A stretch of 47,262 nt of DNA, taken from Candidatus Hodarchaeota archaeon (lineage in GTDB: Archaea; Asgardarchaeota; Heimdallarchaeia; Hodarchaeales; Hodarchaeaceae). Every line of letters starts with the position of its first letter. Position 1 is the stretch's first letter. The stretch is taken from NCBI GenBank assembly GCA_016839815.1, contig JAEOTM010000097.1, positions 1-47,262 of the forward strand. The letters run 5' to 3'. A program made the translations under genes and the position numbers. The notes beneath the pieces were generated by a model that ran no database searches, was not told the DNA's origin, and saw nothing but the letters and a program-made list of their open reading frames with translations. This document shows positions 1-32,314 of the stretch, one piece after another.

Positions 1-757
1 CATACGCAATTCCTACTGCTAATTCGAAAATAGTACAGCTGTGAATCATATCTCCAAAATCAATGATTCCAAAGGAAGGAGGAACTTCGACACCTTGATA
101 GCTTACAACAATATTGAAATCATTAGCATCATTGTGGATAATGCCTGTTCTATACATATCAATGAAGGGAAGAAATTCTGATTCTAATTGACCTAAGTAG
201 AAGTCTATGATCGTTCTCTTTTCCTGAATTTTTATGTACGCGTGATATTCTCTGATAGTTTTAACTGCGTGTTTGAGATCCCAATGAAATTCCCTGTGCG
301 CATGGGGATTCTCAAAAGAGTGTAAAGCAGCACTAATCTGGCCTAAAAAACATCCAAACTGGAATAAAAGTTTATCATTATGAGGTTTGACCTTCGCAAA
401 AACTTTACCAGGTAAATAAGTTAATAATCTGATGAAGTGTGGGAGTTGTCCATCTTTCTGATGAGTAGGAATAGCTTCATTTGCTTTTGAGTAGACAACT
501 CGTGGACAATTTATGTTAGGATTTATGGTAAGTAAATGTTCCATTGTTTGATTCTGAAGGATCAAAAGATTCTTCAATTCATTAGCATTGGCGATTTTAA
601 GTACAAATTGTCGGTTATTGGGAGCTGAAACCAGGAAATTTTGATCCCTCTCACTCGGAAGTTTAGTTAAGGTTCCAGAAATTCCATATAGTTCTTCTAC
701 AATTTGTAAAGCCTCAATGGAGGAATACTTCGGACGATCGAGAATCTTACTTGTCAA
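1..757 (-). CDS. Aminoglycoside phosphotransferase / hydroxylysine-kinase-like (APH superfamily) protein, 3' end runs off the window
   Basis: Not in the ORF track. My translation from TTG at 757 (GGAGAAG upstream) gives MTSKILDRPKYSSIEALQIVEELYGISGTLTKLPSERDQNFLV, later IIHNDANDFNI (catalytic HxDxxxxN) and GIIDFGD (Mg-binding). Confidence 0.85.
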   Translation of the reverse strand, partial: MTSKILDRPKYSSIEALQIVEELYGISGTLTKLPSERDQNFLVSAPNNRQFVLKIANANELKNLLILQNQTMEHLLTINPNINCPRVVYSKANEAIPTHQKDGQLPHFIRLLTYLPGKVFAKVKPHNDKLLFQFGCFLGQISAALHSFENPHAHREFHWDLKHAVKTIREYHAYIKIQEKRTIIDFYLGQLESEFLPFIDMYRTGIIHNDANDFNIVVSYQGVEVPPSFGIIDFGDMIHSCTIFELAVGIAY

Positions 758-18905: not shown

Positions 18906-19439
18906 TTGACTAGTCACTCAACTTCTGGCCCAATAAAATTTGAAAAAATTCAGGTGTCTAAGCAACGCAGTATTAACATAAAGTTGTGGGGACCTGCTGA
19001 ACATCCTCAATGGGGAATGAAACGGTCTACAATTGAAATTCAAGAAGCTAGGAAGAACGAAGAGGGCCAAATCTCTTATGGAAAGGCAATCAGAATTCCT
19101 TGTGATGGCATAGCCGCGTTATTGGCTGCTTATCTGTCAGTATACCTAATAGAAGGACGTAAACTGAATAAACAAATCAAAAGCGATCCAAAATCATTCC
19201 AACCTGAGGGTTCTGGAATCAAATCGGAAGAAATCGAAAAGCTATTACTAGATCAGTTTAATAATCAAAAAATATCTAAAACCAGAATTCTCCAGACACT
19301 AAGCACAAAGGGACTCGATATCAATAGTGATGCACTTCTAGACATATTAGAATCTCTCGTTAAGGATCAACGAATAAAAAAAGAATCAGCAATTCATTCG
19401 GGGTCAGGAAATACTTATACTTTATGGCATTTTAGATAA
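18906..19439 (+). CDS. Putative nucleic-acid-binding protein: PC4-like N-domain plus C-terminal winged helix
   Basis: GGTGA 6 nt before TTG; IEIQEARKNEEGQISYGKAIRIP resembles the PC4 hairpin; the C-terminal helix-helix-helix-wing pattern ends in TYTLWHFR. Confidence 0.6.
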   Translation: MTSHSTSGPIKFEKIQVSKQRSINIKLWGPAEHPQWGMKRSTIEIQEARKNEEGQISYGKAIRIPCDGIAALLAAYLSVYLIEGRKLNKQIKSDPKSFQPEGSGIKSEEIEKLLLDQFNNQKISKTRILQTLSTKGLDINSDALLDILESLVKDQRIKKESAIHSGSGNTYTLWHFR

Positions 19440-20876: not shown

Positions 20877-21962
20877 TTATTCAAGCTTGAATTGATCAAT
20901 TGCTCCTAGCATTTTTGTACTTAAATCAGAAAGTTCTTGTAAAGAAGAGGTCAATTGTCCAACAGCACTGGATTGTTCCTCAGTACTCGCAGCTACCTCT
21001 TCACTAGAGGCGCTATACTCCTCAGCTTGAGCAGCTAGCTCTTGAAGGTGAGCCCGAAGATTTGCGGTTGATATTTTTATTTGAGAAGTGATTTCCAAGG
21101 TTATATGAGAGATATCAACAGCATTTATTCTTGTTTCTTCTGATAAACGTCTAACATTGTCAGCTACGACGTCAAAACCTTTCCCAAACTCTCCAGCTCG
21201 TGCTGCTTCGATTGCAGCGTTAATGGCGAGTAAATTTGTTTGATTAGCGATTTCTTCTATTACTTCTAGAGTCTTACTTATATTCACTAATGCTGTATCG
21301 ACGAATTTTGCCATTTCATCCAGATTGTTCAAACCATTTGAAACTAATTCAGTTTGTTTTGACGCTCCTAAAGAAATTGCTTGAATTGTTGCAGCTATTT
21401 CTTCAGTTAGTGCACTAACCTCTTCTGCAGTTGCTGCAATCTCTTCTGTGGATGTTGCGAGATTTGTTGCTGCTCCTTGATTTGTAGCGATGATATTACG
21501 AAGATTATTTATTGCTAATAAGAAGGAAGTCTGGACTCTTCCAATCTCATCTCCACGAGGGTTTTCTAAACTTTTATATTTCTCTAATGAGAGTTCATTG
21601 TTGGCAATTTCAGCAGCAGATTCCGCTAGATCAACAAGTGGGCTAGCTAAAGATCGACTATAGAAGTAAACAACAAGAGCTCCTCCAATTAACCCAATAA
21701 GATAGGTAAAACCTGAGACCCACATCATTCTAACAAATTCGGACTCTACAAACTCTCCTACGGCAATATTTTCACTAAATTCATTTTTTATTGTATCAAT
21801 GACGTTATTTATGGAAAAACTATATACTGTCATTAGTAATGTTAGTGGTACAACAGTGACTACAAACATCACAGCAAGAAGCCGAAATTTTAATCCACGA
21901 GCTTGCCATAAGCTAGAGAAAATAGAGGACAATTTTATACACCTTTTAGAAAGAAAATTCAA
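20877..21962 (-). CDS. Methyl-accepting chemotaxis protein (2 TM, HAMP, shortened signalling domain)
   Basis: HAMP (LASPLVDL...RGDEIGRV), hairpin tip [30 protein letters not shown], methylation helices [12 protein letters not shown] and [12 protein letters not shown]. Confidence 0.92.
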
Positions 21963-22084: not shown

Positions 22085-22468
22085 TTGTACGATTCAACTG
22101 AAGGTTTCCGCTCTGTTCTGAATGAAGTTTTCGAACAGAATTCTCAAGTTTTAATGATTTCCTTAACAACTCCTGAAGGATTACCGATTGTACTTCTTTC
22201 GCGGGGAGAATCTGGGATAGAAGAGATCACAGATGGAAGTATTACCAATCGTTATGCTGCACTTGTTGGTGCTAGTACCTCATTGGGTGACCGCACTCTA
22301 TCCACCCTCAGTCAGGAAAAGGTTCGATTAATCCATGTTCAGGGAGAATCACGAGATATTGCTATTTCGATTGCAGAAAAGGTGATAACTCTTGTGATTA
22401 CTGAACCTAGTGGTAGTGCTAATTTATTAGCTGAAAAACTCACAAATAGTCTGAAAGTACAGATGTAA
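22085..22468 (+). CDS. Roadblock/LC7 (MglB-like) protein
   Basis: ISLTTPEGLPI, YAALVGASTSLGDRTLSTL, LIHVQG; alpha-beta2-alpha-beta3-alpha pattern; GAGGT upstream of TTG. Confidence 0.85.
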   Translation: MYDSTEGFRSVLNEVFEQNSQVLMISLTTPEGLPIVLLSRGESGIEEITDGSITNRYAALVGASTSLGDRTLSTLSQEKVRLIHVQGESRDIAISIAEKVITLVITEPSGSANLLAEKLTNSLKVQM

Positions 22469-22469
22469 A

Positions 22470-24428
22470 TTGGTGGATGTAGTGAATAATCCTATTGAAT
22501 GGTTTGATCTCCTCAAAACAGCCATCGACCATACAATGGTTGAGGTTTCGGATTTTCCCTTAGATTCGGCCTTTTTATATTCGATAGAAGATGATAAATC
22601 AAATTTTTTCGTGAATAAAACAAGGATAGATAAGAAATACTTATCGATATTTGATCAAACATGGGCGATTCTTACACAAATTTTGACAAATGAACTTCAG
22701 CTATCGGGATGGAAGACCTTAACACTTTCAGGACGCACTCGTGCAATATCAATCAAATTATTGACACCCTTTCCGAAAGTCTATCTCACATTGATACATG
22801 AAATCAATTTTGATACAAACGAGTTTATGAAAATCTTTATGAAACACATCATAGAGTCTGGGTATAAGATTGAATTTGAAACAGCTGGCTTAGTTGCTTC
22901 CGAAGGTTACCCTATCTGGGTTATGTCTGAAACTCAACAAATTGATGAATATATGTTTGCTATATCAATAACATCTTTATTAACCTTAGTTGAACGTATA
23001 GATATGGAGGTAGCTGCTGGAGGAGTTTCTTCCTGTATTGTTCACGGAAATGAAAATCTGCAACTAAACGTTACCTTTAACCCAAGTCGTGATTTGGCCT
23101 TTGCTACAACTCAGAGAGTATCTGATCAGTCTCCTAATGTTGATGAAAAATTACAAATGATTTATGCCAATATATCGGATCCTGTACTTTTTAGTGCATA
23201 TGTTCCAGAAATAAAAAATCCAGAAAGGGAAAAAATACTATCAGAGTTACGAGAGGAAAATGTAGGGGAGATAACAGAGGAAGAAATGCAGAGTTTAAAT
23301 ATTTTTGATACAGAAACTCTTGATTCCTTGGTAAATGAAATTATGAGTGTTTCCCGTAATTTTGGCGCTAATGAGATCTCAATAGGATATTTACGGAAGC
23401 GTATGAAGTTACCAGCAGAAGTATTACATATGGCACTTGAATATTTGATTAGTAATAGTGCTATCATTGGAAGGATAGGGAGAGAAAAGCATTCTGGTAA
23501 AGAAATTCTTGTCATCCAATCTCAAAAAATACAATCAGAGACTGATATACTCACTATTCAGAATGTTCAACAACAGGTTAATGATTTATTTCTCCCGCTA
23601 GATCCTTTTTTGGCCCAGTTACCTATTGTGCAACAAATTGCAGAGACAGAGGTTATTTCTGAAGCTTTGTCTGAATTCCAAGTCCTACAATCGTTATCTG
23701 ATACAGACTCATTATTTCTACAGTCTGGGGATTTGAGAATATTAGCAAATCAATTAGAAAGGTCAGTAATGACTATAACCATGCTTCAAGATCAGGTGAC
23801 AGAAAATCAAGATAATGTGGATTTCGTACAAGAATTGAAAGAAAGACTTGATCGACAAATTGAGAAATTTATTAATCAACGATCGTCAATTGCCACCTCT
23901 GCGAAAAAATTATATTCAGATTTACTAAATTCTTATCGAATATTATTGAAATTGATACCTTCCCCAAGCAATATCAAATATAATAAAGCTATAGATAAAA
24001 TTTCATTGGTGTTTAAGTGTAATCATGCTTTGTGTAAAAATTTCCTCTATAAATATGATGATGCTATTGGCTGGCGTAGAATTATATATTTTTCACAGGT
24101 TTTAAATCTCATTGAGGGTTTTCCAGAGGGATGGGAGCAATTAGATAAAGAAGAAATGTCAACCATTGATATATTACTTTCTAAATTGAAAGAAATAACT
24201 AGTTCAGACCAATTTGCCTCATTGGAATCTTTTTCTTTTCTCTATGAATTGGATGAATTAATTATATCCAATATAGAGAGTGACAAAATGGTTTCCTCCC
24301 TTCGCCAAGCTCTTGATCAATCAAATAACCAAACAGATTATTATACCACCTATCGGCAGTGTAATAATTGTCAGAAGTGGTATTGTTCTAAGCATATTCG
24401 TGCAAATGATCTGTGTATCTATTGTTAA
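22470..24428 (+). CDS. Multidomain protein: tandem Roadblock domains, winged helix, coiled coil, Cys/His Zn finger
   Basis: aa ~8-128 and ~130-235 Roadblock-like (AGLVASEGYPI...SLLTLVERIDMEV...CIVHG); aa ~280-349 WH/PCI-like (EISIGYLRKRMKLPAEVLHMALEYLISNSAIIGRI); C517-x4-C and C631-x2-C-x4-C-x2-H-x6-C-x2-C. Confidence 0.72.
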   Translation: MVDVVNNPIEWFDLLKTAIDHTMVEVSDFPLDSAFLYSIEDDKSNFFVNKTRIDKKYLSIFDQTWAILTQILTNELQLSGWKTLTLSGRTRAISIKLLTPFPKVYLTLIHEINFDTNEFMKIFMKHIIESGYKIEFETAGLVASEGYPIWVMSETQQIDEYMFAISITSLLTLVERIDMEVAAGGVSSCIVHGNENLQLNVTFNPSRDLAFATTQRVSDQSPNVDEKLQMIYANISDPVLFSAYVPEIKNPEREKILSELREENVGEITEEEMQSLNIFDTETLDSLVNEIMSVSRNFGANEISIGYLRKRMKLPAEVLHMALEYLISNSAIIGRIGREKHSGKEILVIQSQKIQSETDILTIQNVQQQVNDLFLPLDPFLAQLPIVQQIAETEVISEALSEFQVLQSLSDTDSLFLQSGDLRILANQLERSVMTITMLQDQVTENQDNVDFVQELKERLDRQIEKFINQRSSIATSAKKLYSDLLNSYRILLKLIPSPSNIKYNKAIDKISLVFKCNHALCKNFLYKYDDAIGWRRIIYFSQVLNLIEGFPEGWEQLDKEEMSTIDILLSKLKEITSSDQFASLESFSFLYELDELIISNIESDKMVSSLRQALDQSNNQTDYYTTYRQCNNCQKWYCSKHIRANDLCIYC

Positions 24429-24484: not shown

Positions 24485-25270
24485 ATGGTATTAGTGACAG
24501 GTATAGATATTGGTTCTCTAACCGCAAAAATTGTAGTTTTAGAACTAAAGGAAGATACTCTCGATAAAAGGTTCTCTCAAATACAGAAAGTAGGATATTC
24601 ACCAACTAGTATAGCCCAAAATCTAATAAAAAATGCAGAAAATGAAATAGATGGACAGAAATTAGATTATATTATATCGACGGGGTATGGGCGTCAATTA
24701 GTTGAGAGTGCAGATAAAACAATTACTGAAATTACCTGTCATGCTGTAGGAGCATATTATTCAGATCCAACAATTCATACGATAATTGATATTGGCGGAC
24801 AGGACTCCAAAGTGATTCGTGTTAATGATCAAGGGCAAGTTCAGGATTTTGAGATGAATGATAAATGTTCAGCTGGATCAGGGAGATTTTTAGAAGTAAT
24901 GGCTGATGCACTAGAAGTATCAATTGAGGAATTTGGATCACTAGGTTTAAACTCAACAACACCTAGTAAGATTTCAAGTACTTGTACAGTTTTTGCTGAA
25001 TCAGAAGTTATCTCACGAATAAACCAAGGAGCTAATCGCACTGATATTGTTGCTGGAATACATGAGTCTATTGTTAATAAAATTGTTGCCCTTGCTTCTC
25101 GTGTTGGAACTGAGCCTGAAATTTCTCTAACTGGAGGAGTTGCTTTGAATCCTGCAGTGAGAACCTTATTAGAACGGGAATTCGAAACCAAATTACAGAT
25201 TCCCAAAGAGCCCCAAATGAATGGGGCACTTGGAGCAGCAATCCTAGCATCAAAGTATTATACAAAATAG
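24485..25270 (+). CDS. 2-hydroxyacyl-CoA dehydratase activase (HgdC/BadF-type ASKHA ATPase, [4Fe-4S])
   Basis: GIDIGSLTAK, STGYGR, EITCHA, DIGGQDSK, MNDKCSAGSG, STCTVFAESE, GALGAA. Confidence 0.92.
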   Translation: MVLVTGIDIGSLTAKIVVLELKEDTLDKRFSQIQKVGYSPTSIAQNLIKNAENEIDGQKLDYIISTGYGRQLVESADKTITEITCHAVGAYYSDPTIHTIIDIGGQDSKVIRVNDQGQVQDFEMNDKCSAGSGRFLEVMADALEVSIEEFGSLGLNSTTPSKISSTCTVFAESEVISRINQGANRTDIVAGIHESIVNKIVALASRVGTEPEISLTGGVALNPAVRTLLEREFETKLQIPKEPQMNGALGAAILASKYYTK

Positions 25271-25278
25271 GGAGAATA

Positions 25279-26250
25279 ATGGCATCAAAGATCTATACAG
25301 GTTTAACTCTCCAGGAAGCACAAAATACTCTTTCAAGTATTCGACCATATATATTGAAAAGTCCCATTATTCGAAGCCATGCTTTAGAGGCTAAACTCAA
25401 TAAAAAAATATATTGTAAGTTGGAATATCTTCAACCGACTCGCTCCTTCAAAGTAAGAGGAGCATGTTCAAAAATTCTTTCCCTAGAGAATAATCAAGAA
25501 GGTGTAGTTACCGCCAGTGGAGGTAATCATGGTTTAGCTGTCTCGTATATCTGTAATGAGCTTAAACTCCCAGCTATTGTGTATCTTCCTACAAATACAA
25601 CTTCTGAAACGATCGATATGATCAAGTTTTGGGGAGGTACTCCTGTGCTTTATGGCTCATCTTGGGATGAAGCTGATGAGAAAGCACAATTGTATGCGAA
25701 AGAAATGCAGTTGCCTTATGTTCATGCTTTTGATGATACTGCAGTAGTTCGTGGACAGGGAACGATTGCGATTGAGATGCTCAATGAGCAATCAGGTCTC
25801 GATGCAATATTTCTATCAGTTGGGGGAGGAGGCTTAATTAGTGGTGTAGGTGTTATCGCTAAACAAATGAAACCTGAAGTCCATATTAATGGTGTAGAAA
25901 CAGTTGGAGCTGATGCTGTTACCCAAAGTTTCAATTCAGGAAGAATTGAACGATTGCCTGCAATTACTAGTATCGCTAAAACATTAGGTGCTCAACAAAC
26001 AACTGAGGATACTCTAGCTCGAATAAAAGTAAGTGTAAACGATATGCAGACTGTAACTGATCAAGAAGCTTTAGATGCCCTAAAATTCCTTTTGGAGGAG
26101 GAAAAGATCTTAGTAGAACCAGCTACTTCTTGTATTGTGGCAGCTTTACTCGAAAACAAATTTGATCTCTCACAATATAACACAATTGGTATCATACTTT
26201 GTGGTGCTAATGTCTCTCTTCGTGAACTTCAAAAATGGAATGTTGTTTGA
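25279..26250 (+). CDS. PLP-dependent threonine/serine dehydratase (catabolic type, no ACT domain)
   Basis: KLEYLQPTRSFKVRG, ASGGNHG, GQGTIAIE, SVGGGGL, VEPA, CGAN. Confidence 0.9.
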   Translation: MASKIYTGLTLQEAQNTLSSIRPYILKSPIIRSHALEAKLNKKIYCKLEYLQPTRSFKVRGACSKILSLENNQEGVVTASGGNHGLAVSYICNELKLPAIVYLPTNTTSETIDMIKFWGGTPVLYGSSWDEADEKAQLYAKEMQLPYVHAFDDTAVVRGQGTIAIEMLNEQSGLDAIFLSVGGGGLISGVGVIAKQMKPEVHINGVETVGADAVTQSFNSGRIERLPAITSIAKTLGAQQTTEDTLARIKVSVNDMQTVTDQEALDALKFLLEEEKILVEPATSCIVAALLENKFDLSQYNTIGIILCGANVSLRELQKWNVV

Positions 26251-26389
26251 TACCAGAGTCATAGACTACCCGTATTAGAGAACATTATAAATAAAAGGTT
26301 AACATTAGAAGTTTTGAAAGCCTGTTGGGTTATTGCTCTCTCACAGCTTTGATATGTTGTTAAAAAGATAAATACGAGATGGAACTAGA

Positions 26390-26893
26390 ATGGACACACT
26401 AGAATTATTAAAAAGTCGTCGAAGTATTAGAAAATATAAATCGACTCCAGTAGAAGAAGATAAAATCCAGAAATGCCTTGAAGCAGCTCGATGGGCTCCT
26501 TCTGCCTCAAATAAACAACCATGGGAATTTATGATCGTAACCAACAATAAATTTCGTCAGAAAATGGCTGAAGTTCACCCTTACGCAAAGTTTGTTTCCG
26601 AAAGTCCAGTAGTTTTCATTCCACTAACTGATCCGACCATTCATTCTGATTACCATCAATCAGACACTGCTCTTGCCACAATGCAATTCATGATTATGGC
26701 TCATTCACTAGGTTTAGGTACTTGTTGGGCTGGAGTAATTAATAAACCACAAATCGAGAATAAAATTAAAAAAATGCTCAATATACCCAATAAATTGCGG
26801 GTACTTGCGATTGTTGCTTTAGGTTATCCTGATCATACAAGAAAGTCGGAACGCAAGGACATGGAATCTTTACTTCATCGTGAGGAGTACTAA
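26390..26893 (+). CDS. Nitroreductase-family protein
   Basis: RRSIRKY, WAPSASNKQPWEF, AHSLGLGTCW, ALGYP. Confidence 0.93.
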   Translation: MDTLELLKSRRSIRKYKSTPVEEDKIQKCLEAARWAPSASNKQPWEFMIVTNNKFRQKMAEVHPYAKFVSESPVVFIPLTDPTIHSDYHQSDTALATMQFMIMAHSLGLGTCWAGVINKPQIENKIKKMLNIPNKLRVLAIVALGYPDHTRKSERKDMESLLHREEY

Positions 26894-26898
26894 AATTC

Positions 26899-28104
26899 TT
26901 ACTCCCAGACTGGAGTTGTGGCCAAAGAACCACAAAACGCACATGGAATAGGTTTGATATTAGAACCCTTTTTCAAAGTTTCAGAACTAAATACATGAAA
27001 ACACTGACCACATGCCATCTTTATAGCGACCTTTTCCCACCGATATTCGATTTTTTCTGTTAATTCTCCTCCGATGAATATATCTATAGGAGTGGGATAT
27101 TCAAACATGGTTCCTCGTTCAGACAAAAACATTTCAAATTTATATTTCATTATTTTAAACCTAGATAAACCATCTTTTGATATTACAATGGTTATAATTT
27201 TTATGAAATGATAAAGAGCAGAAACAGGAATGGAAATTACAAGCATCCATATAATTAATGTAATCCATGATATCGAAAATTGAAAAGGAATGTAAAATGG
27301 AACCACAAAGAGTGTTGGGAAAAGCATTAGGGGAACTAAAACCATCGATGTATTGAAAAATACGATATTAACTGTTATTTTCCGTTGAGATATTTCTTCT
27401 TCCTTTTTTACTTTTTCTTCAATCCAAGTCATTGTTTCTCCAATAAATGCCAGTAGGAATACATTATAGCCATAAATAAGTGCAGAGAGTATAAGGATAG
27501 GATAATTACTCATGTCAATAAGGAATTCGAATAATCCGTACGGTAATAGGACTAAGCTTCCCTCGAGGGAGAGGAAAGTTATTTGAATGATATCATATGC
27601 TACTTTACTAATAAAACGAGTAATACCAAGGTTTTTACGATATGCTTGAAGACCAATAAATGTATAGAATACACAAACAATGATAAGATTAATCCAAGCG
27701 ATTTCAAAAATATCTTGAGTATTAATGAAGAAATTAAAACCTGAACCAGAAATATATCTTAAAAAAACCATATAATTCAAAAGAGCTATAGTTTCAAAAA
27801 TCGAAATGGCTATCCAAGATTGAATTATTTCAAGTATCAGACGGATAATAGATTGAGAAGGAGAAGTAATCTGACCAATTATTCTCCAAATTAAGACTGT
27901 AGGGATAAAACTCCATCCCAAAACAAGAAAAAGGGTAAAAAATGCCATTCCAATTGTTGAAAATGGTTCAACATGGTCGGGAGCCGGAGAGACGCCAATG
28001 TTTTCCCAGAAGTTGATTGAATGTAAAAACTGTAAAAAAAAGTAACCAAAAGTGAGTATTAAAGAGAAAATAGACAAGTAGACCACTGTTCTCTTTAACC
28101 TCAA
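26899..28104 (-). CDS. Polytopic membrane protein with C-terminal Zn ribbon, hypothetical
   Basis: About 8 hydrophobic segments, then CGQC...CAFC near the C-terminus. Confidence 0.75.
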   Translation of the reverse strand: MRLKRTVVYLSIFSLILTFGYFFLQFLHSINFWENIGVSPAPDHVEPFSTIGMAFFTLFLVLGWSFIPTVLIWRIIGQITSPSQSIIRLILEIIQSWIAISIFETIALLNYMVFLRYISGSGFNFFINTQDIFEIAWINLIIVCVFYTFIGLQAYRKNLGITRFISKVAYDIIQITFLSLEGSLVLLPYGLFEFLIDMSNYPILILSALIYGYNVFLLAFIGETMTWIEEKVKKEEEISQRKITVNIVFFNTSMVLVPLMLFPTLFVVPFYIPFQFSISWITLIIWMLVISIPVSALYHFIKIITIVISKDGLSRFKIMKYKFEMFLSERGTMFEYPTPIDIFIGGELTEKIEYRWEKVAIKMACGQCFHVFSSETLKKGSNIKPIPCAFCGSLATTPVWE

Positions 28105-31458: not shown

Positions 31459-32097
31459 TTATGCGTTAGAGGGTTTAGTAGACGAGAGATTAGCAGAAAA
31501 TTCAAGTTTGTTTAAAGTTTTATCAATATAGATTTCAGGATCTTTCTTTTTCAATAATAATAGTCCTAATACTTCGAAAGCTTCTTCAACGTTCATACCT
31601 GAGAGTGCACTGGTGTACATGAAAGCTGTTGAATCTGCGTGAAATTCCATCTGCAGTTCGTCTTTGAAATTAGAGATAGCATCCTGATCAATAAGCAATT
31701 TTTGTTGTAAATCACTTTTATTTCCTAAAAGCACAATGGGGATGTCATGATGAGCGTCCCCTAAGTTTTGAAGTACTTCTATCTTCCATTCACTTAAATT
31801 TGCCAACGAGACCGGGTTAGTAACATCGAAAACCATGACAATAGCATGAGATCCGCGATAAAACGTGGATCGGACAAATTCAAAGCGTTGTTGTCCTGCT
31901 AGATCCCAAATTTGAAATTTAACTTTACTACCATCAACATCTACGGTATGTGTGCAAATATTTGTACCAATAGTTAAATTATAAGTGGAAGCAAACCCTT
32001 TCCCTAAAAATCTCTCTACAATCGCTGTTTTTCCAACTCCACCATCACCGACAAGACAGACCTTATACAGATCACTCTTGATTTCGAAGATACTCAT
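31459..32097 (-). CDS. Rab-like small GTPase (Ras superfamily); likely start ATG 32097, ORF open to 32211
   Basis: G1 GDGGVGKT, G2 TIG, G3 IWDLAGQ, RF..VRSTFYRGS, G4 GNKSD, G5 TSAL; no C-terminal prenylation Cys. Confidence 0.93.
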   Translation of the reverse strand: MSIFEIKSDLYKVCLVGDGGVGKTAIVERFLGKGFASTYNLTIGTNICTHTVDVDGSKVKFQIWDLAGQQRFEFVRSTFYRGSHAIVMVFDVTNPVSLANLSEWKIEVLQNLGDAHHDIPIVLLGNKSDLQQKLLIDQDAISNFKDELQMEFHADSTAFMYTSALSGMNVEEAFEVLGLLLLKKKDPEIYIDKTLNKLEFSANLSSTKPSNA

Positions 32098-32314
32098 TGT
32101 TTCCACATTCGAGAGACTAGTTGTATTACCATTAATCATAATTATAATAAGAGTTACCAGAGAATCTATTCGAGTATCCGTTTTTCTCCATATATCTCCA
32201 AGTTCTAACATACTCTCATGGGAATAATATCTTAATAGTTTCTATAGAATGAATATCGTAAAGACTACTTAAATATTTAATTTTAATAGTCAAATATTCC
32301 GATTACTTGCTAAG

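Follow-up and report, generated by a model that had tools for sequence, protein, structure and literature searches.

The window, i.e. the whole stretch of 47,262 nucleotides analyzed here (contig JAEOTM010000097.1 of a Candidatus Hodarchaeota archaeon), belongs to a metagenome-assembled genome from marine sediment, and the sequencing runs listed for it are of marine-sediment and estuary DNA, with no RNA run among them. It carries two adjacent genes encoding a small Roadblock protein of 127 amino acids (aa) and a large multidomain protein of 652 aa. Together, 22085..22468 and 22470..24428 form a conserved two-gene Roadblock module which is limited to the Hodarchaeales. The features of the pair are given below. 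Conservation values and the invariance of the proposed zinc (Zn) ligands were computed over 37 homologues of 38–82% identity. Structural features were taken from models calculated with AlphaFold2 (AF2) and from VIA fold searches.

22085..22468, plus strand: single Roadblock protein of 127 aa, obligate upstream partner gene (Robl_LC7 sub-threshold, family profile, adjacency)
22470..24428, plus strand: multidomain protein of 652 aa, whole gene including the stop codon (open reading frame confirmed at these positions)
22491..22811, plus strand: Roadblock domain 1 (RD1), aa 8–114, weakly conserved (mean column 0.51; AF2 topology, VIA fold search)
22815..22862, plus strand: junction helix, aa 116–131, last helix of RD1 and first helix of RD2 (AF2, VIA spans)
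22863..23177, plus strand: Roadblock domain 2 (RD2), aa 132–236, strongly conserved (0.73), with C189 and an ERIDMEV helix (VIA, profile)
23187..23303, plus strand: acidic linker, aa 240–278, motif GE-x-TEEE-x-Q-x-LN-x-FD (low model confidence, high conservation)
23310..23516, plus strand: winged-helix domain, aa 281–349, the most conserved segment (0.76; AF2 order helix-strand-helix-helix-strand-strand, VIA)
23538..23954, plus strand: helical region, helices in aa 357–409 and antiparallel hairpin in aa 413–495 (AF2, VIA)
23955..24062, plus strand: N-terminal half of the Zn module, aa 496–531, IPxP motif and beta-hairpin with C517-x4-C522 (invariance, domain model)
24063..24344, plus strand: helical insertion, aa 532–625, motif (L/F)L(I/T)(T/S)N-x-(Q/E)RD (AF2)
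24345..24425, plus strand: C-terminal half of the Zn module, aa 626–652 (invariant ligands, domain model)

The large gene starts with TTG at 22470 or GTG at 22473, 1–4 nucleotides past the TAA stop codon of the small gene, which is itself preceded by a GAGGT Shine-Dalgarno sequence and an AT-rich, TATA-like stretch. The small protein remained sub-threshold in Pfam Robl_LC7 (PF03259), with an E-value of 0.019 and 15.1 bits at a gathering threshold of 23 bits. A profile of its family matched the Odinarchaeota Roadblock structure 7f8f (E 7.8e-4) and dynein LC7 (E 0.007–0.009). The small gene was found immediately 5' of the large gene in all loci with sufficient flanking sequence. This pairing is kept even at the locus of a 23%-identical homologue in the sister family, where the remaining neighbours change. 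Genomes carrying the large gene contain an orthologue of the small one at E 1e-44 to 1e-62. Such an orthologue was absent from three checked genomes without the large gene, which are 80–93% complete and gave paralog-level matches only (E 1e-6 to 7e-4). The initial annotation, made from the DNA sequence by itself, had proposed that the upstream Roadblock completes a Ragulator-like oligomer. Adjacency and co-occurrence support the partnership. The term "Ragulator-like", however, is mere analogy, since neither a GTPase gene nor a LAMTOR1-like gene is linked in the loci compared, p18 being too short and divergent for a search.

A word-indexed search returned 63 full-length homologues of the large protein with 40–82% identity. 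Every named one is from Hodarchaeales/Heimdallarchaeota; they are annotated as hypothetical, and two JGI entries are labelled Roadblock/LC7/MglB regulators. When 1.84 billion cluster representatives were searched exhaustively with a profile, 28 proteins were obtained at E ≤ 0.001, including about 13 full-length ones; no eukaryotic relative was seen at the sequence level. The organism labels among the ten most distant profile matches were three Hodarchaeales and one Thorarchaeota. Among the 83 genomes of the class examined, the large gene, always in single copy, was present in the window genome, in 19 of the 21 other genomes of its own family and in one of two genomes of the sister family; it was absent from the 59 genomes of the other five families. 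Judged by these searches, the full architecture is restricted to Hodarchaeales. When the whole 652-aa protein was used as query, no match above threshold was obtained from Pfam, NCBIfam or a PDB sequence search, which agrees with the initial annotation, where the architecture was not recognized as a named family; the suggestive row in this search was limited to zf-AN1 (residues 629–644, E 0.055). At the sequence level the protein is thus outside every curated family, staying below the thresholds of Robl_LC7, AN1 and PCI and lacking the FYVE signatures. A search of the accessible literature found no published description of the architecture or of the Zn module. The fusion of a tandem Roadblock with a winged helix, a helical bundle and a Zn module is new.

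The full-length AF2 model reached a mean predicted local distance difference test score (pLDDT) of 74.9 and a predicted template modelling score (pTM) of 0.44. Thus, the individual domain folds are reliable and the relative domain arrangement is not. The model was numbered over 651 aa, and 1 has to be added to obtain the 652-aa numbering used for the Cys and His residues. RD1 exhibits the elements H7–24, E30–37, E42–48, H55–74, E82–86, E90–99, E102–110 and H115–130 (H, helix; E, strand; 651-aa numbering), i.e. the alpha-beta-beta-alpha-beta-beta-beta-alpha order of Roadblock domains. RD2 (115–232 in the same numbering) repeats this order via E137–215 and H225–232. In the VIA search residues 5–130 resembled the third domain (LD3) of CCZ1 (Z 9.0) and of Mon1 (Z 8.9). 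Residues 111–239 matched MglB (6hjm_A) with Z 12.6 and a root-mean-square deviation (rmsd) of 2.8 over 125 aligned residues, four Asgard Roadblock structures with Z 10.6–12.5 (9jue, 7f8m and 7yh1: 11.9–12.5) and MP1-p14 with Z 10.8–10.9. The alignments span 5..130 for RD1 and 111/115..239 for RD2, so that helix 115–130 is common to both. Consequently, the tandem Roadblocks with a shared junction helix that had been read from the sequence are well founded. The AF2 topology shows the fold twice, and both domains were recovered by VIA and by Foldseek, whose matches to the full-length model comprise MglB, Asgard Roadblocks, Ragulator, dynein LC7 and Mon1-Ccz1.

At the level of profiles the likeness is fainter. 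The top PDB match of the RD2 profile was the Thorarchaeota Roadblock 7f8m (E 0.012). The 652-aa protein gave no Pfam Robl_LC7 match, and one of 16 RD2 segments reached E 0.0019. A comparison of the RD1 and RD2 profiles with hhalign recovered just the overlap built into both. Outside the Hodarchaeales, 172 Asgard genomes gave a match, and in many of them the RD2 region matched stand-alone Roadblock open reading frames, mostly of 120–145 aa; these phylum-wide matches come from a divergent family profile, with per-genome E-values mostly of 1e-5 to 1e-9. The invariant C189 (23034–23036) is located in strand beta3 of RD2 and is the sole Cys outside the Zn module. By analogy, the large protein probably works like known Roadblock platforms and probably offers small GTPases a place to dock.

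The acidic linker postulated behind RD2 was confirmed. Residues 239–277 of the model have a pLDDT below 50, a net charge of -6 and a conservation of 0.72, compared to 0.51 in RD1, and G265, T268, E270, E271, L275 and F278 (651-aa numbering) are invariant. A linker which is conserved as well as the folded domains suggests a binding motif, and it may represent a short linear one. The adjoining unit had been described as winged-helix- or PCI-like. The winged helix was observed in the AF2 model, and residues 276–352 matched the winged helices of TREX-2, the proteasome lid, UFL1/DDRGK1 and SarS with Z 9.2–9.5 (PCI subunits: 9.3–9.5). Membership in PCI did not hold. Pfam PCI, MarR_2 and DnaB_2 were sub-threshold (PCI, PF01399, in 5 of 16 members, best E 0.021), a PDB profile search with the winged helix returned nothing, and the domain stands alone behind a low-confidence linker, without the helical-repeat bundle of the PCI arrangement.

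The presence of a winged helix would also be expected of a transcription regulator, in which the Roadblocks would sense ligands in a GAF-like manner, the winged helix would sit on DNA and the helical region and Zn module would dimerize. Foldseek indeed lists CodY (GAF plus winged helix-turn-helix), although with poor superposition (TM 0.22–0.27, rmsd 17–19), and Pfam MarR_2 appears sub-threshold in 3 of 16 members. We nevertheless consider such a regulator unlikely. The protein carries a net charge of -33 (winged helix: +1), and helix 3 of the winged-helix domain (AEVLHMALEYLISN) combines acidic with hydrophobic residues, which is atypical for a recognition helix; charge and acidic helix argue against DNA binding. 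Moreover, the top winged-helix matches are of the protein-interaction type (TREX-2, PCI subunits of the proteasome lid, UFL1/DDRGK1), and no DNA-binding family was found at threshold.

The initial annotation had placed a coiled coil downstream of the winged helix. The region is helical as predicted (H356–380, H395–408, H412–444 and H449–494; AF2, 651-aa numbering), but the supposed coiled coil is an antiparallel hairpin (412–444/449–494). Residues 409–599, approximately, matched four-helix bundles with Z 9–10 in VIA, a value which is not significant for helical folds. These matches suggest that the hairpin packs with later helices; on function they are uninformative.

The C-terminal part had been annotated as a split finger with eight ligands. 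All of them, C517, C522, C631, C634, C639, H642, C649 and C652, were invariant in 37 of 37 homologues, as was C189. P497 and W535, the latter just past the N-terminal half, are invariant too. The 652-aa protein contains exactly eight Cys residues, members of the family 8–10 in total. The C-terminal half reads Q-C631-x2-C634-x2-W-x-C639-x2-H642-x6-C649-x2-C652. C517 and C522 sit on the hairpin 509–529. Between ligands 2 and 3 lies an insertion of about 108 aa with helices 531–543, 559–577, 588–596 and 600–610 (AF2, 651-aa numbering). When residues 495–652 were modelled alone, based on an alignment of 18 sequences, one compact domain was obtained (pLDDT 90, pTM 0.81), with a pLDDT of 92–95 in the N-terminal and 96–97 in the C-terminal Zn half. 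This whole domain had no match among solved structures (Foldseek best E 0.57, VIA best Z 2.9), and the module profile had no detectable PDB relative by sequence. FYVE-type fingers (RUFY FYVE 2yw8, endofin FYVE 3t7l, RIM 2cjs_C and Rubicon RH 6wcw) could be aligned over 41–49 residues at 1.9–2.4 Å, FYVE itself over 45–46 residues at 2.4 Å. The alignments cover positions 1/20..158 of the model, which means that the fingers take in the hairpin at the N-terminus as well as the tail at the C-terminus. The zf-AN1 family was sub-threshold in 10 of 18 members (best E 0.0024; 27.9 bits required); for the window protein the best value against AN1 (PF01428) was 16.6 bits, at profile positions 14–29 of 40. 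A likeness of the module profile to influenza HA2 (E 0.005) weakened to E 0.26–0.38 with a broader profile. It is most likely a chance similarity of helical segments and was rejected.

Phylum-wide searches detected the module in 35 of 400 Asgard genomes. Carriers with other architectures are represented by the following genes, identified by locus label and position.

L034, 6156–7823, minus strand: helical-repeat protein with a one-site Zn module (family also in L036–L047 and L049)
L033, 856–8244, plus strand: Asgard protein of 2463 aa, module at the extreme C-terminus (sequence)
L032, 6177–8039, minus strand: TPR protein of 621 aa, module at the extreme C-terminus (sequence)

The module ends a 621/627-aa protein consisting of TPR repeats, which were confirmed, and a probable beta-sandwich. 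It also ends the presumed cytoplasmic tail of the 2463-aa membrane protein, and a helical-repeat family of about 545–600 aa found in at least four families, including two Hodarchaeaceae genomes. The N-terminal parts of these carriers are unrelated and contain neither Roadblock nor winged helix, and their insertion is shorter. Common to the Asgard carriers is a signature of a helix, IPxP, the Cys hairpin, an invariant Trp, an (F/L)LT(S/N)xE(Q/R)D helix and a terminal W-x-C-x2-(C/H). Sequence comparison indicates that the Zn module is a separate evolutionary unit, mobile within Asgard archaea, at the C-terminus of at least four architectures. This reuse points to a shared docking function. The 2463-aa protein presumably carries FG-GAP/VCBS and Ig-like repeats in its N-terminal part, followed by one transmembrane helix, and appears to share the probable beta-sandwich segment before the module with the 621-aa protein. 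The helical-repeat family occurs in several Heimdallarchaeia families and in one other Asgard family; it has no Pfam match, and no conserved neighbour gene was found for it. In genomes G057 and G067 this helical-repeat paralogue coexists with the Roadblock protein.

The helical-repeat family also informs on the arrangement of the ligands. All 14 members examined have kept ligands 1 and 2 (C-x6/7-C) together with 5 and 6 (W-x-C-x2-C) and have lost 3, 4, 7 and 8. Such a joint loss is the pattern expected of a cross-brace in which C517/C522 pair with C639/H642. This comparative evidence, drawn from the sequences, is independent of the structural model. Among distant members of the large-protein family the terminal C-x2-C is replaced by C-x2-H, one member has C522 replaced by an adjacent His, and one has lost both halves together. 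From the compact model, the FYVE-type alignments and the co-loss of ligands we infer that C517 and C522 are close to the C-terminal cluster and that two Zn ions are bound in a cross-brace, Zn1 by C517, C522, C639 and H642, Zn2 by C631, C634, C649 and C652. The cross-brace spacing of the initial annotation held for the core C-x2-C-x4-C-x2-(C/H); the spacing of RING/PHD fingers does not fit, and the FYVE lipid motifs were not found. According to the model, the Zn module would be of a new kind, namely a cross-brace finger into which a helical domain of up to about 108 residues is inserted after ligand 2 and before ligand 3.

We favour an explanation for which we see an even chance, that the Hodarchaeales-specific Roadblock pair is a GTPase platform with a Zn docking module. 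RD2 and the small protein would form the usual dimer-type Roadblock platform, which in Roadblock/LC7/MglB proteins is built through helix alpha2 and strand beta3. In the manner of MglB, Ragulator and the C-terminal domains of Rag, this platform would bind and regulate, or anchor, one of the many small GTPases of the genome. A total of 61 matches to the Ras superfamily was recorded in the genome, along with 13 to Roadblock and about 10 strong ones of the Rag/Gtr1 type. Winged helix and linker motif would recruit further proteins. At a common partner or place in the cell, the helical bundle and the Zn module would dock the complex or make it oligomerize. Two neighbouring genes bear on this explanation.

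Within 24485–26893: BcrAD/BadFG-type ATPase of 261 aa, Pfam E 3.8e-59, first of the genes after the pair
31459..32211, minus strand: Ras-superfamily small GTPase of 250 aa, PF00071 E 1.1e-41

Several observations weigh against the GTPase platform. No GTPase gene is located within about 8 kb of the pair in any locus compared; the GTPase at 31459..32211, the sole one in the window, lies 7 kb downstream of the pair and is not syntenic elsewhere. The downstream synteny with the BcrAD/BadFG ATPase and a pyridoxal phosphate (PLP)-dependent enzyme could mean a metabolic role. Comparison of RD1 and RD2 with the small Roadblock by hhalign gave probabilities of 2–4%, in the right register and not significant. 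Beyond weak Roadblock profile matches, no kinship to MglB or LAMTOR was detected at the sequence level. Finally, the Zn assignment derives from pattern, model and comparison, and the FYVE-type structural matches have a Z of just 2.2–2.7 (FYVE 2.5–2.7), tied with unrelated rows.

The genes behind the ATPase (within 24485–26893) are, as we take them to be, a 323-aa PLP-dependent enzyme and a 167-aa nitroreductase. ATPase, PLP enzyme and nitroreductase are syntenic in the family of the window genome, not beyond it, the ATPase following the large gene at -4 to +57 nucleotides in 6 of 6 Hodarchaeaceae loci compared. The Cys motifs KCSAGSG and STCTVFAE of the ATPase resemble the iron-sulfur bridging sites known from activators of dehydratases; a gene for a dehydratase partner was not seen in the vicinity. 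On the other side of the pair, a chemoreceptor (MCP) gene at 20877..21962 and a cysteate synthase gene have no counterpart in the other loci compared. A chemoreceptor-Roadblock module was rejected on this ground. A 177-aa protein (18906–19439, plus strand) shows a weak winged-helix-like C-terminus (Mnd1 helix-turn-helix, E 0.05). In four other loci its gene is likewise conserved ahead of the Roadblock pair; in this window non-conserved genes intervene. A 401-aa polytopic membrane protein (26899–28104, minus strand), which is not syntenic elsewhere, ends with C-x2-C...C-x2-C (CGQC...CAFCG), a sequence resembling a zinc ribbon on the cytoplasmic side.

A rival explanation takes the pair as an accessory or assembly factor for the adjacent iron-sulfur ATPase or for iron-sulfur metabolism, the eight Cys/His residues holding an iron-sulfur cluster instead of zinc. 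The conserved gene order in six Hodarchaeaceae loci would fit such a function, as would upstream open reading frames at the divergent locus of genome G069 which by eye resemble SufS and IscU/SufU. Yet synteny inside one genus-level clade is weak evidence, and in G069 the ATPase is not beside the pair but a HIT hydrolase follows; only the Roadblock pairing survives across families. Furthermore, the C-x2-C-x4-C-x2-H spacing with its His ligand is typical of Zn cross-brace fingers (AN1 sub-threshold, FYVE superpositions), and the four-ligand, single-site variant in other families fits structural Zn. We therefore regard the iron-sulfur function as very unlikely. Likewise very unlikely is a RING/PHD-like ubiquitin-pathway or FYVE-like lipid-binding finger that would make the protein an E3-like or phosphatidylinositol 3-phosphate (PI3P)-binding adaptor: the eight ligands fit a cross-brace, FYVE fingers are among the structural matches and Asgard archaea encode ubiquitin-like systems, but Y/F-x-Q-C stands before ligand 3 in place of R(R/K)HHCR, WxxD and RVC are missing, the x4 between ligands 4 and 5 is unsuited to RING/PHD, no RING, PHD or FYVE Pfam match was obtained even at E 1, and the charges of the module (+3 for each Zn half, -10 for the insertion) do not give it a markedly basic surface.

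For the Zn module within the favoured GTPase platform a further-reaching function can be proposed. We give a small chance to the idea that the module is a docking or junction domain peculiar to Asgard archaea, comparable to the RING/Zn junctions at the C-termini of the eukaryotic HOPS/CORVET and GATOR2/SEA coat-like proteins. If true, the module would tie a Roadblock GTPase platform, alpha-solenoid and TPR/beta-sandwich proteins and a giant membrane receptor into one membrane-associated assembly, and GTPase-regulated complexes for tethering or nutrient signalling would have a prokaryotic forerunner in the Hodarchaeal Roadblock-winged-helix-Zn protein. In eukaryotes, the machines controlling Rab, Rag and Arf GTPases are built around Roadblock/longin platforms. 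The lineage-specific, single-copy pair is an expressible candidate for how platforms became multidomain scaffolds before eukaryotes. The Zn module, compact, confidently modelled and unmatched among solved structures, is a second result in its own right.

Among known systems, MglB and the stand-alone Asgard Roadblocks (6hjm, 9jue, 7f8m, 7yh1) have the same alpha-beta-beta-alpha-beta-beta-beta(-alpha) fold as RD2 and the 127-aa protein; the likeness of RD2 is strong in structure (Z 11.9–12.6) and weak in profile. These proteins are single-domain dimers, often encoded beside their GTPase gene. The Hodarchaeal protein differs in having two Roadblocks that share a helix and are extended by about 420 residues, and in lacking an adjacent GTPase gene. 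Like Ragulator (LAMTOR2/3, LAMTOR4/5), the pair would build a GTPase platform from several Roadblocks distributed over more than one chain, and the large protein matches MP1-p14 with Z 10.8–10.9 and Rag C-terminal domains with Z 9.0–9.2. However, neither a wrapping subunit of the LAMTOR1 type nor a linked Rag-like GTPase occurs in the neighbourhood, Rag-like genes being located elsewhere in the genome, and no sequence homology of Ragulator to the pair was detected. The Hodarchaeal pair has three Roadblocks compared to Ragulator's four plus two, and winged-helix, helical and Zn domains which Ragulator lacks. The tri-longin Rab guanine nucleotide exchange factors (Mon1-Ccz1, Fuzzy-Inturned) likewise carry consecutive longin/Roadblock-type domains in one chain. 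Mon1-Ccz1 is among the top Foldseek matches (E 2.7e-4), and RD1 is similar to LD3 of CCZ1 and Mon1 (Z 9.0 and 8.9). Globally these proteins do not superimpose (TM 0.13–0.19, rmsd above 25). The Hodarchaeal protein has no LD1-type longin, another partner and an unrelated C-terminal half.

The Zn module has the core C-x2-C-x4-C-x2-(C/H) in common with the FYVE, RIM/Rabphilin, Rubicon RH and AN1 fingers, and two interleaved sites are likewise inferred for it. In contrast to those fingers, its first ligand pair is a C-x4-C located about 108 residues further upstream, on a beta-hairpin, and a helical domain separates ligands 2 and 3. FYVE is a contiguous domain of about 60–70 aa with PI3P motifs, whereas the module is interrupted by 108 aa and is devoid of these motifs. 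The AN1 pattern, C-x2-C-x9-12-C-x1-2-C-x4-C-x2-H-x5-H-x-C, ends with H-x-C compared to C-x2-C in the module, so that the first and last pairs differ. Among the other Asgard carriers the helical-repeat family holds only the ligands of site 1, whereas the Hodarchaeal protein possesses all eight.

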